In this document: positions 25,996 to 53,920 of the stretch, piece by piece
How the letters are laid out: each line of letters begins with the position of its first letter
Numbering within the stretch: position 1 is the stretch's first letter
Assembly (NCBI GenBank): GCA_028708425.1
Contig: JAQVYY010000008.1
Location: 7,799-71,798, forward strand
Origin: Bacteroidales bacterium
Lineage (GTDB): Bacteria; Bacteroidota; Bacteroidia; Bacteroidales; Tenuifilaceae
Length of the DNA: 64,000 bases
Reading direction: 5' to 3'
The notes under the pieces: model-generated
Seen by the model: only the letters and a program-made list of their open reading frames with translations
What the model was told of the DNA's origin: nothing
The model's database searches: none
Made by a program: the position numbers and the translations under genes

Positions 25996-26571
25996 ATGAG
26001 AGTAGTAACCACACGACTTGAAATAAAGCCTTTAAATCTCGAAGAGTTTAAGGCGATTATCGAATCGAGAGCCAAGTTCGAGAGGATGGCAAAATGCAAT
26101 ATCTCAGGATTTAGCTTGCCAGATAGTTACTGTGCCGAGGTAACCGAAATGCTGGAGAAGAGGCAAGGCCTTTGGTCAGAAAAGTCTAACGATTACCTCT
26201 TTTATACCCTATGGACTATGATTGATACCGATATTAAATCAATTGTAGGTTTGTTTACTTTTAATGGAAAGCCTAATGCTCAGGGCGAGGTCGAAGTTTA
26301 TTTTAGTATCGAATCGCCGTATCGTCGTAAGGGTTATGGTTACGAAGCTATGCGGGGTATGCTAAAATGGGCATCGGGAAGCGAACTATTTAAAAGGTTG
26401 CTGGTCGAGGCCGATTTCGACAATAAGGCGGCCATGGCTTCATTAAAAAAACTAGGTTTTAAACCTATTCCTGTATACGATTATGAGGGAACGACGGGTA
26501 CATCAACGAAGTACTATATTAGTACTGCAAAACCCAAAGATATCGACAGTGAAGAGTTAGATTTTGACTAG
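25996..26571 (+). CDS. GNAT N-acetyltransferase (RimJ/RimL-like)
   Basis: YRRKGYGYEA acetyl-CoA motif; NKAAMASLKKLGF. Confidence 0.8.
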   Translation: MRVVTTRLEIKPLNLEEFKAIIESRAKFERMAKCNISGFSLPDSYCAEVTEMLEKRQGLWSEKSNDYLFYTLWTMIDTDIKSIVGLFTFNGKPNAQGEVEVYFSIESPYRRKGYGYEAMRGMLKWASGSELFKRLLVEADFDNKAAMASLKKLGFKPIPVYDYEGTTGTSTKYYISTAKPKDIDSEELDFD

Positions 26572-26585
26572 CCGCCAGCTAGCCC

Positions 26586-26666
26586 CCCTCTTCTTATAAA
26601 TCCTGTTAAGGGTTCGTCATTTTGAGCGTTAGCGAAGAATCTCAAAAGATTTACCGGATAACAGTG
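26586..26666 (+). mobile_element. MITE-like repeat family 2, left-truncated copy
   Basis: Collinear with 53756-53836 (CCCTCTTCTTATAAA...GTCATT.TGAGC..TAGCGAAGAATCTCAAAAGATTTACCGGA.AACAGTG); left TIR missing. Confidence 0.75.
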
Positions 26667-45336: not shown

Positions 45337-46380
45337 TTACTGTATTTCAACAATGCGTCTGCTAATCTCTTTGCCATTCGCCTTTAGTTTAACAATGTAA
45401 GCCCCATCACTCAAGCTAATTTCTTTAGCTGAAAATTTAAAGGTTCTCTCCCCAGCATTTTCTGTTCCAGCGTAAATAACCTTTACAAGTTTTCCCGTGA
45501 TATCGTATACCGATAGGTTTACCTTGCTCTCTTCGGTTAGCCGGTATCTTATGTTAACAAAATCGTGGTATGGATTAGGATAAGCTTCGAGGGTTGCCTC
45601 GTTAAAGCGTTCGATATCGAGAGGTTTGGCACCCTCTTTAATGGCTATGGGGTTGTATGCGGCTTGGTTTGATGTAAAACTGCGTCCATCCTGATAGGTA
45701 GTAATTGATTCGATTAGTACCAGAATAGGGAATCGGTGCTCGTTTACGTACCAACGGTATGTTGTGGTTTCGATATTGTAGTTACGGTCATTAATTGTTT
45801 GGTCAAACGATTTTATCTCTTTCACCCTAAGGGCCTTTTCGTACACCATATTGTCTGGCAGCATAAGCGTTCCTAATCCGTCGGCTTCAACATCATAGGT
45901 GCCATTAATTACACCTAGCTGTTTTTGAGTTGTATTGTACGTACCGCTAAAATTCCCACTAAACGAATTGTTGTATGCGAAAGGGTACTTCATCTTAACA
46001 AAAGGCTTATTATAAACAATATAGGTGTTTCCGCTGGCGGTCATGTAGCCGTGTTGTTCAATCGATTTTTTTGTTGTTAAGAAGAAGAAGCTATTCCCGA
46101 ACTCTTCGAGGCGAGTATTTGATTTTGAAAATATATTTTGGCCTTTCGAATTCACGGGGCTGTCAAGTGTTCCCACGAAATTTTCGTTTAGCTTTAAGCT
46201 ACGAAAATCCCAAACCACATTCTTGCCCGATTGACCCGGTTCGGTGTAGTCGGTAATTTTCATTTCGTTAGTGTGATTTGCTACCAACCCATGTGTTTGT
46301 TGGCGAAGTACGGTTTGTGCGCTAAGGGTTACCGAGAGCGCTATACATACTAAGGTTAAGTAAAGTTGTCTCATAGTCAC
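45337..46380 (-). CDS. Secreted protein with T9SS type A C-terminal sorting domain
   Basis: Signal peptide; C-terminal YPNP...LSVYDITGKLV...GAYIVKL motif. Confidence 0.85.
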   Translation of the reverse strand: MTMRQLYLTLVCIALSVTLSAQTVLRQQTHGLVANHTNEMKITDYTEPGQSGKNVVWDFRSLKLNENFVGTLDSPVNSKGQNIFSKSNTRLEEFGNSFFFLTTKKSIEQHGYMTASGNTYIVYNKPFVKMKYPFAYNNSFSGNFSGTYNTTQKQLGVINGTYDVEADGLGTLMLPDNMVYEKALRVKEIKSFDQTINDRNYNIETTTYRWYVNEHRFPILVLIESITTYQDGRSFTSNQAAYNPIAIKEGAKPLDIERFNEATLEAYPNPYHDFVNIRYRLTEESKVNLSVYDITGKLVKVIYAGTENAGERTFKFSAKEISLSDGAYIVKLKANGKEISRRIVEIQ

Positions 46381-46462
46381 ATTTTTTTAGATTAGTAAAA
46401 CATCAAATTTTAGTGATAGTAAAAATACCAAATTCTTATGATAATTGCAAGTAAAGGTAATT

Positions 46463-46869
46463 TAACCCGCATTATTCATTAATTTTCATTGGTGTCCGGT
46501 TAATATTTATAGATTCCTCCCTACGGTTGGAATGACAGGGCGTTGAGTTGTATTTGAGAGGGGAGGGCTTGGCTAGCGGCGAAGCCGCTAGCCAAGCCCT
46601 CCCCTAAAAACTAAACATTTGTCATTGACAAAGCCATTTCTATTTTCAACGGTTTTGTCGAACATACGTTTCAGAGCAAAACGCAGTGAAGCGAAGAATC
46701 TATAATGTTTAACTTTATTTTTACCGGACAATAGTGATTAATTTTATTAAAGATGAATGCAAATGCGGGTTACCCCGACTTAGTTGAGCCCAATTTTGGG
46801 TAACAAAATTGGTTGAGAAACTTAGTCGCTGCCGGAGACAGCAATTATTCGGATGAATAGTTGGGGTTA
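46463..46869 (+). mobile_element. MITE-like repeat family 1, copy 10, interrupted by a family-2 insertion
   Basis: Left end 46463-46486; resumes at 46746 to GGGGTTA at 46869. Confidence 0.85.
46487..46736 (+). mobile_element. MITE-like repeat family 2, long 250-bp copy with 9-bp TSD ATTAATTTT
   Basis: TIRs CATTGGTGTCCGG / CCGGACAATAGTG; identical 9-mers at 46478-46486 and 46737-46745; internal inverted REP-like motifs and a perfect 22-bp hairpin at 46559-46605. Confidence 0.88.
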
Positions 46870-46897: not shown

Positions 46898-49102
46898 CTA
46901 GTTACCCAAATCGGAAATGAATTTTATACGGATTAGCCTAATCTCCTCCTCTTCAAAGTCATCTTCTCCAAGGTATTCCATTGCCTCATCTATTGATTCC
47001 GTTTCGGCCTCCTCTTTAAAGTAATCATAAATTTCATCAATCTTATCCTCTTCAATATTTTGATTGATGTAGTAATCGAGGTTAATACGTGTTCCCGAGT
47101 TTACAATGGCCTCTATTTCGGTTAAAAGTTCAGAGGAATCAAGCCCTTTCGCATTCGCTATATCCTCCAAATCCATCTTACGGTCGATACTTTGTATGAT
47201 GAAAACCTTGAGGAGTGACTTGTTGGCAATGGATTTTACGATCATGTCCTGAGGCCTTATAATTTCCTTGTCTTCAACATAAACTTTGATAAGTTCGATA
47301 AACTCTTTACCGTATCGTTTGGCTTTTCCGATGCCTACCCCTGTTATATTTTGAAGTTCCTCCATGTTGGTAGGATACTGGATAGCCATATCCTCTAGTG
47401 AGGGGTCCTGAAAAACCACGAATGGCGGAAGGTTTTTCTTTTTTGCAATCTTCTTCCGCAGGTCTTTAAGCATGGCCATTAGCTCCTCGTCGTGCGACTC
47501 GCCTTTGCCTGTTTGCCCGAGGGTAATATCATCATCATCCGATTCTTCGTAGTCGTGGTCTTGGGTAAACATAATGTCGAAAGGCTCTTCAATAAACTGT
47601 CTCCCTTTTTCGGTTAGCATTAGCAACCCATAGTTCTCAATGTCCTTATCGATAAATTTCTCAACAAGGGCTTGGCGGCTAATTGCGTTCCAGAATTTTA
47701 TATCTTTTTCGGCTCCTTCGCCAAAAAATTCGAGCTTATTGTGTTTATATGATTTTATAGAGGTTGTAAGGTTTCCGCAAAGTATATTGGCGATGTGTTC
47801 TGCTTTAAACTTCTCTTTAACAGCATCAATTGTTTCGAGAAATAGTTGTAAATACTCTTTGCCCTCGAATTGGGTTTTTGGATGCAGGCAGTTGTCGCAT
47901 GAGCTACAATTTTTTTCGTGGTACTCCTCGCCGAAGTAGTGCAGAAGCATTTTTCGTCGGCATACCGATGTTTCGGCATACGATACGGTTTCGAGTAGCA
48001 GCTGTTTGCCAATTTCTTGTTCGGCAACTGGTTTACCCTGCATAAATTTTTCGAGCTTTTGAATGTCTTTATAGCTGTAAAACGTTATGCATTTGCCTTC
48101 GCCTCCATCACGTCCAGCTCTGCCTGTTTCCTGATAATATCCCTCAAGGCTTTTAGGTATATCATAGTGTATTACAAACCTCACATCGGGCTTGTCAATA
48201 CCCATGCCGAATGCAATTGTAGCAACAATCACATCAACCTCTTCCATAAGAAACTTATCCTGATTTCCGCTGCGGGTTTTTGAGTCCATCCCGGCATGAT
48301 AGGGGAGCGCCTTTATATCGTTAACCTGGAGGGTTTCAGCAACCTCTTCAACCTTTTTGCGACTTAAGCAGTATATAATGCCCGATTTTCCGGAGTTATT
48401 TTTTATAAACTTAATAATTTCGCGGGTGGTATTTACTTTGGGGCGAACCTCGTAGTATAAATTAGACCTGTTGAATGATGATTTGAATACATTGGCATCG
48501 AGCATTCCCAGGTTTTTTTGTATATCGTGCTGTACCTTAGGGGTTGCGGTTGCCGTAAGGGCAATTATTGGAGCGTTCCCTATTTCGTTAATGATGGGCC
48601 TTATGCGTCGGTATTCTGGTCTAAAATCGTGACCCCATTCCGATATACAGTGCGCCTCGTCGACTGCGTAAAAAGAAATTGTAACCTGTTTTAAGAACTC
48701 TATATTCTCTTCTTTGGTAAGCGATTCGGGTGCAACGTATAGTAACTTGGTTTGGCCGCTAAGCATGTCCTGCTTAACTTTTTGAACCTGAGTTTTGTTT
48801 AACGATGAGTTGAGGAAATGGGCTATCCCATCCTCCGAGCTAAACCCTCGCATGGCGTCAACCTGGTTTTTCATTAGGGCAATTAGCGGCGATATTATTA
48901 TGGCAGTACCCTCGCTTATTAGTGCGGGTAGCTGGTAGCAAAGAGATTTTCCTCCCCCTGTAGGCATAAGCACAAAGGTATCATTTCCGGCAAGCACATT
49001 ACGGATTATAACCTCCTGATTGCCCTTAAAACTACCAAAACCGAAATACTTGCTAAGATGTTTTGATAACGATATTTCCGATTCAAATTTTACTGTTGAC
49101 AT
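46898..49102 (-). CDS. recQ: ATP-dependent DNA helicase RecQ
   Basis: MPTGGGKSLCYQ, DEAHCISEWGHDFRP and QETGRAGRDG motifs; HRDC domain. Confidence 0.97.
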   Translation of the reverse strand: MSTVKFESEISLSKHLSKYFGFGSFKGNQEVIIRNVLAGNDTFVLMPTGGGKSLCYQLPALISEGTAIIISPLIALMKNQVDAMRGFSSEDGIAHFLNSSLNKTQVQKVKQDMLSGQTKLLYVAPESLTKEENIEFLKQVTISFYAVDEAHCISEWGHDFRPEYRRIRPIINEIGNAPIIALTATATPKVQHDIQKNLGMLDANVFKSSFNRSNLYYEVRPKVNTTREIIKFIKNNSGKSGIIYCLSRKKVEEVAETLQVNDIKALPYHAGMDSKTRSGNQDKFLMEEVDVIVATIAFGMGIDKPDVRFVIHYDIPKSLEGYYQETGRAGRDGGEGKCITFYSYKDIQKLEKFMQGKPVAEQEIGKQLLLETVSYAETSVCRRKMLLHYFGEEYHEKNCSSCDNCLHPKTQFEGKEYLQLFLETIDAVKEKFKAEHIANILCGNLTTSIKSYKHNKLEFFGEGAEKDIKFWNAISRQALVEKFIDKDIENYGLLMLTEKGRQFIEEPFDIMFTQDHDYEESDDDDITLGQTGKGESHDEELMAMLKDLRKKIAKKKNLPPFVVFQDPSLEDMAIQYPTNMEELQNITGVGIGKAKRYGKEFIELIKVYVEDKEIIRPQDMIVKSIANKSLLKVFIIQSIDRKMDLEDIANAKGLDSSELLTEIEAIVNSGTRINLDYYINQNIEEDKIDEIYDYFKEEAETESIDEAMEYLGEDDFEEEEIRLIRIKFISDLGN

Positions 49103-53574: not shown

Positions 53575-53724
53575 TAACCCCAAATTATTCATTCGAATAA
53601 TTGGGGTATCTGGCGGCGATTAGGTTTCACAACCAGTTTTTTTTAACCAAAATTGGGTTTTACTAGGTCGGGGCAACCCGCATTTGCATTTACCTTTTAT
53701 AAATTTGATGAATAATGCGGGCTA
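53575..53724 (-). mobile_element. MITE-like repeat family 1, copy 12
   Basis: Reverse-complement copy; TA at both ends. Confidence 0.85.
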
Positions 53725-53737
53725 AATTATATAAAAT

Positions 53738-53836
53738 CACTATTGTCCAGAGAATCCCTCTTCTTATAAAACCTGTTAAAATTTTGTCATTCTGAGCATT
53801 AGCGAAGAATCTCAAAAGATTTACCGGACAACAGTG
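53738..53836 (+). mobile_element. MITE-like repeat family 2, 99-bp copy with 9-bp TSD ATATAAAAT
   Basis: TIRs CACTATTGTCC / GGACAACAGTG; identical 9-mers at 53729-53737 and 53837-53845. Confidence 0.88.
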
Positions 53837-53920
53837 ATATAAAATGAAGTAAAGCCGTTTGTTTTTTATTAAAAGTAGCTGAATGTATGTGGTTACCAAC
53901 TAAAATTTTTAATTTTACAG

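Follow-up and report, generated by a model that had tools for sequence, protein, structure and literature searches.

The region at positions 46462-46869 of the DNA studied here raises a simple question: how did one small non-coding repeat come to lie inside another, and what kind of transposase carried it there? The window, that is, the whole stretch of 64,000 nucleotides under analysis, corresponds to positions 7799-71798 of contig C68 in a Bacteroidales metagenome-assembled genome (assembly G000), which comprises 3.51 Mb in 112 contigs, all of them at least 2.5 kb long, and has a GC content of 40.5%. Two families of MITEs meet at the locus. Family 1 (F1) is a 149-bp MITE, and family 2 (F2) occurs in a main form of 250 bp.

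Read from left to right, the locus begins with positions 1-16 of F1 copy 10 (46462-46477, + strand, placed by consensus alignment), which carry the left terminal inverted repeat (TIR) TTAACCCGCATTATTC including the 3-bp TTA duplication of F1. A 9-bp target-site duplication (TSD), ATTAATTTT, follows at 46478-46486, where it takes up F1 positions 17-25 at the tip of the left hairpin. The F2 element occupies 46487-46736 on the - strand; it is 250 bp long, belongs to subfamily A, is 98% identical to the family consensus, and contains no ORF. As read 5' to 3', it starts with CATTGGTGTCCGG and finishes with CCGGACAATAGTG. The IRR-type end, CATTGGTGTCCGG, lies at 46487-46499 and the IRL-type end, the reverse complement of which is CACTATTGTCCGG, at 46724-46736. 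The two termini are imperfect inverted repeats: over their outermost 13 bases, CACTATTGTCCGG and CATTGGTGTCCGG agree at 10/13, and another block common to both, TATAGATTC, lies further inward. A perfect palindrome with 22-bp arms (AGGGGAGGGCTTGGCTAGCGGC) and a 3-nt centre lies inside the element at 46559-46605 and is present in the family consensus. The right TSD, again ATTAATTTT, is found at 46737-46745, and F1 copy 10 then resumes with positions 26-149 (46746-46869, + strand), which complete the left hairpin and supply the central hairpins and the right TIR, ending in GATGAATAGTTGGGGTTA.

When F2 is removed and one TSD is kept, the empty site is 149 bp long, matches the F1 consensus at 140/149 positions, and is gapless at the junction, which about 450 other F1 copies span uninterrupted (BLAST). 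In the fold of the restored site (-14.6 kcal/mol), the duplicated 9-mer is again the tip of the F1 left hairpin. Because the restored F1 is gapless, the other copies cross the junction, and the 9-mer returns to the hairpin tip, the nested insertion is real. An earlier reading of this DNA from its letters alone (the sequence-only reading) had described F2 as nested in F1 copy 10 with a perfect 9-bp TSD; the insertion is confirmed, and the coordinates agree.

The F2 element of the window is one of about 97 F2 loci in the assembly (BLAST with ten F2 variants), which together amount to 19.6 kb. With at most one mismatch allowed, the 13-mer F2 terminus CACTRTTGTCCGG has 93 matches genome-wide, whereas its reversed control has 1-5. 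Lengths range from 99 to 257 bp, with a dominant 250-bp form in two subfamilies and shorter variants (99, 114-117, and about 190-207 bp) built with the same end modules. By crude ORF calls, 99.7% of F2 bases are intergenic. The sequence-only reading had staked its case on finding 9-bp duplications at other copies as well, and they are present: among the 75 internal F2 loci, defined as those not touching a contig end, 48 are flanked by a perfect 9-bp TSD and 10 more by an 8/9 match. Chance is excluded by the excess of termini over the control together with the 9/9 flank match in 48/75 copies. Together, 56 sites define an AT-rich, palindromic target logo, A-T-W-n-n-n-W-A-T, with A1 at 79%, T2 at 69%, W3, W7, A8 at 69%, and T9 at 79%. 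F2 thus behaves as one transposon family that makes a 9-bp staggered cut. With its ends CACTRTTGTCCGGTAAAA / CATTGKTGTCCGGT, which are conserved throughout the roughly 97 loci, it shows the features of a MITE, namely TIRs, mostly a 9-bp TSD, small size, many copies, and no transposase ORF.

The internal palindrome of F2 shows compensatory arm changes among copies, and its centre is found in both orientations. It was considered as a separate nested element and rejected, since it is part of the family consensus, and also as a terminator and rejected, since no T-run follows it on either strand. In Rfam, no family matches F2 at threshold, and only microRNA look-alikes appear below it.

Two further F2 sequences lie in the window. 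The first is a short, modular 99-bp form, which with its two ATATAAAAT TSDs extends over 53729-53845 on the + strand; the element itself, CACTATTGTCCAG...CCGGACAACAGTG, is at 53738-53836, and the duplications are at 53729-37 and 53837-45. Its neighbour is the full-length F1 copy 12 (F1 positions 1-149; 53575-53725, - strand; C68:61373-61523), the end of which is 3 bp away, or 12 bp with the TSD counted, much as the sequence-only reading had stated (about 13 bp). The second is a fragment at 26570-26666 (- strand) that the earlier reading does not contain. It is the terminal half of a roughly 207-bp form ending in CCGGATAACAGTG, truncated on its left side and lacking an intact duplication.

The nested copy and the close neighbour had suggested that F2 is drawn to F1 or to structured sites in general, and this part of the proposal did not hold. 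Proximity was evaluated on the F2-excised genome, with 85% called as coding and 522 kb as intergenic by crude ORF prediction. Random intergenic 9-mers lie within 0, 10, 30, and 100 bp of F1 in 13.4%, 15.2%, 18.5%, and 26.9% of cases, which for the 68 scorable F2 insertions predicts 9.1, 10.3, 12.6, and 18.3; the observed numbers are 2, 8, 14, and 25. The count inside F1 rises from 2 to 4 after correction for two arms missed by the mask, and these 4 compare with 9.1 under the uniform null and 4.0 under a null weighted by the F2 target motif, which was learned without the nested sites. Under either comparison, F2 shows no general enrichment near F1, contrary to the expectation of the sequence-only reading, and therefore the position of the second F2 copy 12 bp from F1 is unremarkable. 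Nor do restored F2 targets fold better than motif-matched controls (MFE of -3.77 versus -3.85 kcal/mol, P = 0.46).

What survives of shared targeting is a single 9-mer. Three of the four nested F2 copies were inserted in one register, with a TSD corresponding to F1 positions 17-25 at the hairpin apex: the window copy (C68:54285, TSD ATTAATTTT), a copy at C12:37547 in the opposite relative orientation (TSD ATAAAATTT), and a copy at C39:10803 (TSD ATTAAATTT). These insertions are independent, because the TSD halves are identical within copies and different between copies. The F1 loop consensus is ATCAAATTT (266 copies), and all three hits fell in rare C-less variants, which carry ATT or ATA where the consensus has ATC. 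Over about 490 F1 loops, the motif-weighted expectation is 0.13 F2 hits against the 3 seen (P = 3e-4), a statistic that rests on three to four events and was framed post hoc; with the discovery copy omitted, it becomes 2/67 against about 0.13 expected. These three 9-mers carry an insertion in 3/13 of their F1-loop occurrences and in 0/169 of their other intergenic ones (Fisher P = 2.9e-4), and A/T-only 9-mers of the motif class are occupied in 3/15 cases in F1 loops versus 13/2424 elsewhere.

A second IS4-like element, IS-X, has been at this 9-mer as well. About 125 bp of IS-X is found on each of ten contig ends in the assembly: an IRL, CAGTAGTGACCGAGTAAATTTT, followed by ATG AGC AAA GAT..., on C31, C39, C62, C92, and C112, and an IRR, CACTATTAACCGACTAAATTTT, on C11, C26, C39, C57, and C80. 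The ten ends can be paired into five copies through the perfect 9-bp TSDs ATTAAATTT, AATTATAAT, ACTTATTAT, ATAAAAATT, and ATCAGTTTT. On C39, the F2 copy is followed by an IS-X IRR, and next to the partner IRL on C92 come ATTAAATTT and, after it, F1 from position 26 onward. This arrangement indicates that IS-X and the C39 F2 element inserted at one and the same 9-mer of a single F1 copy. The 9-mer at F1 positions 17-25 has thus been hit at least four times in this genome, three times by F2 and once by a full-length IS.

An alternative to a true context effect is that the nesting carries no targeting information, the two repeats overlapping by chance in AT-rich non-coding DNA and the hotspot being a fluke or a plain 9-mer preference. 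The share of F2 inside F1 lies at the motif-weighted expectation, 14 insertions within 30 bp compare with 12.6 expected, real sites fold no better than matched controls, and the C-less loops that were hit fit the motif, all of which this explanation accommodates. It accommodates less readily that the hotspot exceeds its expectation with the motif already accounted for, that no identical 9-mer away from F1 loops holds an insertion, and that a different IS used the same 9-mer. We regard chance nesting as quite possible, while leaning away from it, and judge it somewhat probable that the F1 hairpin apex is preferred beyond its 9-mer sequence, a real context effect. The stronger proposal, that the apex of the 53-nt left hairpin of F1 is a context-dependent landing pad for IS4-type transposases and a genomic 'safe harbour', is put forward tentatively; the cause would perhaps be cruciform formation, DNA bending, or an extended motif. 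If the landing pad is true, the abundant F1 family would channel later insertions into itself, and single-base changes in the loop, ATC to ATT/ATA, would switch it on. The hotspot would be of no wider consequence unless it is structure-dependent, yet the reuse of one F1 9-mer by two IS4-type elements provides a testable case of context-dependent target choice.

Nesting implies an order of events, and the two families differ both in mechanism and in average age. F1 is represented by 564-603 nhmmer hits in the assembly, 332 of them near full length, which occupy about 63 kb or 1.8% of the genome; its TIRs are ACCCGCATTATTCAT / CCCCAATTATTCAT. In 182/249 copies, against 135 expected, the same 3 bp, mostly TTA, flank the element at either end, and the flank pairs co-vary (CTA/CTA, ATA/ATA, TAA/TAA). 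These identical and co-varying flanks establish a 3-bp NTA duplication, which is a hallmark of IS5/Harbinger-type elements. By this TNA-type duplication and its TIRs, F1 has the character of an IS5/Harbinger-like (Tourist-type) MITE. No autonomous parent of F1 was found in the assembly, where an IS5-like relic on C25 and a 1642-bp IS on C64 have unrelated ends. Since F1 duplicates 3 bp and F2 duplicates 9 bp, the two families use different transposases, as the sequence-only reading had supposed.

The 250-bp F2 copies are 94% identical to their consensus (92% pairwise), versus 89% for F1 (83% pairwise), and four F2-in-F1 nestings stand against no clean F1-in-F2 case. Sequence divergence and nesting together support the view that F2 is the younger family on average. 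The earlier claim of a younger F2 therefore holds as an average and fails as a strict order, because at two loci (C60:2557 and C32:69567) a truncated F2 copy stops precisely at the terminus of an F1 element. At C60:2557, an insertion of F1 inside F2 was considered and found ambiguous, as the second half of F2 is missing and the 3-bp flanks of F1 disagree (TAA versus TTA); at C32:69567-69579, a 13-bp F2 terminus abuts F1 and is likewise ambiguous as a reverse nesting. In addition, an IS-X-like relic with an internal deletion (C84:149-846) has an F1 copy within it. The activity periods of F1 and F2 probably overlapped.

A candidate transposase for F2-type ends is encoded by full-length elements in relatives of this bacterium. 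In the congener G007, a DUF4372-type transposase begins about 100 bp beyond the terminus CACTGTTGTCCGA, and the N-terminus of this protein served as the query for a parent search in the genus. Two complete copies of an IS of about 1.4 kb are present on contig C151 of G011 (Bacteroidales bacterium STCSWMC_95), a member of the same genus, so that an IS with F2-type ends is present in both congeners. The G011-type IS has the ends CACTGTTGTCCGATAAAAA and CATTACCGTCCGATAAAAA and a single ORF for a 399-aa transposase with the Pfam domains DUF4372 and DDE_Tnp_1 (PF01609, 69.4 bits). This protein scores 206.8 bits against the IS4 family equivalog NF033592 of NCBIfam (cut-off 115), and a Y-2-R-3-E-6-K signature can be read in it (YKLRWQIELLFKQLK). 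A scan of GTDB genomes with the transposase gave 80 loci at 69-100% protein identity, nearly all in Bacteroidota, with hosts that include Bacteroidales MAGs, Flavobacterium, Myroides, Pedobacter, and Gelidibacter. Among these, 46 full-length relatives with both flanks are 1384-1419 bp long and have the ends CAYTnnTGTCCGrTAAAA. Perfect 9-bp AT-rich TSDs flank about 20 of the 46, and their target logo (A1 70%, T2 88%, A8 88%, T9 70%) matches that of F2.

The ends of F2 agree with the closest parent ends at 17/19 positions for IRL and 13/20 for IRR, and TGTCCGrTAAAA is shared by the two. F2 thereby has an autonomous element with matching ends, in congeners and more widely in Bacteroidota, and the parent shows the CACT/CATT...T9 ends and 9-bp direct repeats of the IS4 family, in which such repeats measure about 9-12 bp. 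Because ends, TSD length, and target logo are common to F2 and these full-length IS4-family elements, F2 can be read as an IS4-family MITE. We consider it very probable that the F2 element of the window is a non-autonomous miniature (MITE) of an IS4-family IS of the IS4Sa-like, DUF4372 plus DDE type, which was mobilised in trans into an older F1.

No IS with F2-type ends is present in G000 itself, where searches with the transposase N-terminus and the full protein returned only a relic of 33% identity (C76:19094-19600, matching the N-terminus of the G011-type transposase). Likewise, no transposase gene in the assembly is bounded by F2 termini, and all contig ends with F2 termini continue as MITE, none into the interior of an IS. 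The genome search proposed by the sequence-only reading was hence successful for F2, with its roughly 97 loci, and found the parent in congeners rather than in this assembly. The absence of the parent from G000 is weak evidence, because the assembly has no contigs below 2.5 kb and demonstrably lacks the body of the five-copy IS-X; elsewhere, MAGs often carry the G011-type IS as a separate contig of 1.3-1.5 kb, a size that this assembly would have discarded. Three candidates in the assembly were rejected. A 1642-bp IS with PF01609, present in two copies on C64 with ends TCCTGTTTTCCGC, and a frameshifted IS5-like relic with PF01609 at C25:42842-43920 both have ends unrelated to those of F2, and a 1715-bp interval between F2-like termini on C80 is merely a 250-bp copy plus a chance terminus. 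An autonomous partner in the same genome would be required for present mobility, though MITE status does not depend on it. We infer that an IS of the G011 type may have mobilised F2 in trans here and that it would since have been lost from the genome or be missing in the assembly.

The resident IS-X (ends CAGTAGTGACCGAG / CACTATTAACCGAC) might instead have moved F2 in place of the G011-type IS. It looks recently active, its five copies being paired by perfect 9-bp AT-rich TSDs; it has in common with F2 a CACTATT start, a 9-bp stagger, the target type, and one target 9-mer, and its 5' leader is 84% identical to that of the G011-type IS over 44 bp. The core of the IS-X end, however, is (G/A)ACCGA where F2 has GTCCGG, the ends are alike at only 10/14 positions, and TGTCCGrTAAAA is common to F2 and the G011-type IS; this comparison covers the ends, the IS-X body being unassembled. 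Mobilisation by IS-X is on this evidence unlikely.

The sequence-only reading had left the choice of DDE transposase between IS4 and IS256 types, and the ends, TSD, and target logo of the full-length parent favour the former. IS256-type (Mutator-like) movement, to which the 8-9 bp duplications of IS256 elements would be suited, or movement as a REP/REPIN-type element by a Y1 (RAYT) transposase, which the REP-like hairpins and long GC-rich palindrome of F2 bring to mind, is highly improbable, since the full-length elements bounded by F2-type ends carry the gene of an IS4-family DDE transposase (DUF4372 plus DDE_Tnp_1) and not that of Transposase_mut, and elements moved by Y1/RAYT are without the TIR-bounded 9-bp duplications that F2 has in 48/75 loci. 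The parentage of F2, to judge from these end and domain comparisons, is that of the IS4 family and not of IS256.

With an IS4-family parent, the nested locus can be explained by a short series of steps. A transposase supplied in trans would bind the F2 ends (CACTATTGTCCGGTAAAA and CATTGGTGTCCGGT), and F2 would be excised and joined to a target cut with a 9-bp stagger, the repair of which would leave the two ATTAATTTT copies. The target would have been the AT-rich apex of the left hairpin of an already resident 149-bp F1, which itself would have been moved by another transposase, as its 3-bp NTA duplication suggests.

The parent IS can be compared with named groups of the IS4 family. Elements of the IS4Sa subgroup have CA------T ends and generate direct repeats of 8-10 bp (De Palmenaer, Siguier and Mahillon 2008, PMC2266710). 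The parent resembles them in its size of 1.38-1.42 kb, its 5'-CA------T ends, its transposase with DDE and YREK residues, and its 9-bp repeats; the assignment to IS4Sa rests on ends, size, and repeats rather than on a phylogeny. It differs in that the Bacteroidota clade has a DUF4372 N-terminal domain and only about 33% identity to named rhizobial elements, the nearest named relative in the plasmid collection being an ISRm16 family transposase at 33% identity.

Bacterial MITEs derived from IS elements have been reviewed (PMC3184786), and F2 is like them in being small, non-coding, high-copy, and intergenic, with TIRs, a fixed TSD, and the ends of an autonomous IS. It is unlike other MITEs in its confinement to one uncultured Bacteroidales lineage, its modular forms, and the lack of a parent in the same assembly. 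One MITE within another, as with F2 in F1, is also like the situation in plants. Nested MITE insertions reportedly were described there by Jiang and Wessler in 2001 for Tourist and Stowaway elements.

Several ISs target repeated palindromes, among them IS1397 and ISKpn1 of the IS3 family and IS621 and ISPpu9 of the IS110 family (PMC1525189), and in S. meliloti every copy of the IS4-family element ISRm22 is situated in a REP element (Tobes and Pareja 2006, PMC1525189). The present case is similar to that of ISRm22 insofar as IS4-type insertions recur at a fixed point within an abundant intergenic palindromic repeat. It differs in being a soft hotspot, with 3 of about 68 F2 insertions and one of five IS-X insertions rather than near-exclusive targeting, and in that the target is a TIR-bounded MITE and not a REP, of which only the rare C-less loops are hit.

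The expansion of both families is huge only in this species. F2-type termini number 93 in G000 versus 10-23 in the congeners G002, G007, and G008, and F1 candidates number about 568 versus about 20 in G003, G007, and G011. F2 provides a clean, documented burst of an IS4-family MITE in an uncultured Bacteroidales, for which ends, TSD, target, and a parent IS widespread in Bacteroidota are all described. For annotation, two MITE families that will escape gene callers and repeat libraries make up about 2.4% of the genome.

At the nested locus, the upstream neighbour is a RecQ helicase gene (46898-49102, - strand; DEAD, Helicase_C, RQC, HRDC, and RecQ_Zn_bind domains), whose stop codon lies about 30 bp from the right end of F1 copy 10. 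The downstream neighbour (45337-46380, - strand) encodes a secreted protein with a T9SS C-terminal sorting domain (PF18962, 47.5 bits). Its start codon is about 80 bp from the F1/F2 composite, which accordingly lies in the upstream region of this gene. The second F2 copy is located between divergent genes for an EamA transporter and an M20 peptidase, and effects on expression are conceivable.

In the Bacteroidales MAG under study (G000), F1, the 149-bp MITE, was active after the formation of an internally deleted relic of about 700 bp on contig C84 (149-846). The relic resembles IS-X, a second IS4-like insertion sequence carried by this genome, has the ends CACTACTGACCGAC and CACTTTTAACCGAC and retains the transposase start MGKEKGIHFVGQPILKQ; a full F1 copy at 346-495 lies within it, which shows that F1 activity postdates its formation. 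Two truncated copies of F2, the IS4-type MITE, retain 51 bp (C60:2557-2607) and 13 bp (C32:69567-69579) of the F2 terminus, and both stop exactly at an F1 terminus, the F1 copy being full-length in each case. These truncations fit either F1 insertion or an F1-associated deletion after F2 insertion, and at C60 the F1 flanks are mismatched (TAA versus TTA).

F1 is itself a site of insertion. A 1642-bp IS with the ends TCCTGTTTTCCGC, which encodes a 522-aa DDE_Tnp_1 transposase, is present in two identical copies (C64:50854-52495 and C64:63972-65613). One of these has split an F1 element, apparently duplicating 3 bp (ATT), and F1 is thus host to a third kind of IS as well. At C99:42078-42129, 27 bp from an F2 copy, the left hairpin of F1 (52 bp) stands by itself, in keeping with an F1 made up of modules that are found on their own as well. 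The ends of an IS5-like transposase relic with a frameshift (DDE_Tnp_1; C25:42842-43920) bear no resemblance to the F1 TIRs, so this relic is not an obvious parent of F1.

The internal palindrome of F2, with 22-bp arms, carries compensatory arm changes between copies, as seen at window 46559-46605 and in all 250-bp copies. Its centre is found in both orientations, CTTCG in 12 copies and CGAAG in six, as if it flips, and no terminator-like T-run follows the palindrome on either strand. The window contains one more F2-related sequence, its third (26570-26666): this fragment is the terminal half of the approximately 207-bp form, begins directly behind a stop codon and lacks an intact duplication. 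Elsewhere in G000, another DUF4372/IS4-type transposase survives as an N-terminal relic (C76:19094-19600) that is 33% identical to the enzyme of congener G011; an F2 copy (C76:18722-18959) lies some 135 bp away from it.

In congener G007, a 760-bp segment is present twice with 97.6% identity (C2:1-780 and C2:20500-21314; loci L014 and L015). It contains the IS end, the first ~100 transposase codons and part of a neighbouring gene, which indicates that a truncated IS fragment was copied together with host DNA.

IS-X has five copies in G000, and its body is absent from the assembly. Its IRL ends are at C31:11709-11833, C39:1-120, C62:1-126, C92:1-125 and C112:15750-15875, and its IRR ends at C11:1-125, C26:48116-end, C39:11062-end, C80:1-125 and C57:8703-end. 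Five perfect 9-bp AT-rich duplications pair up all ten of these ends, located at contig ends, and the pairings also yield five contig joins: C39-C92, C26-C62, C11-C112, C80-C39 and C57-C31.
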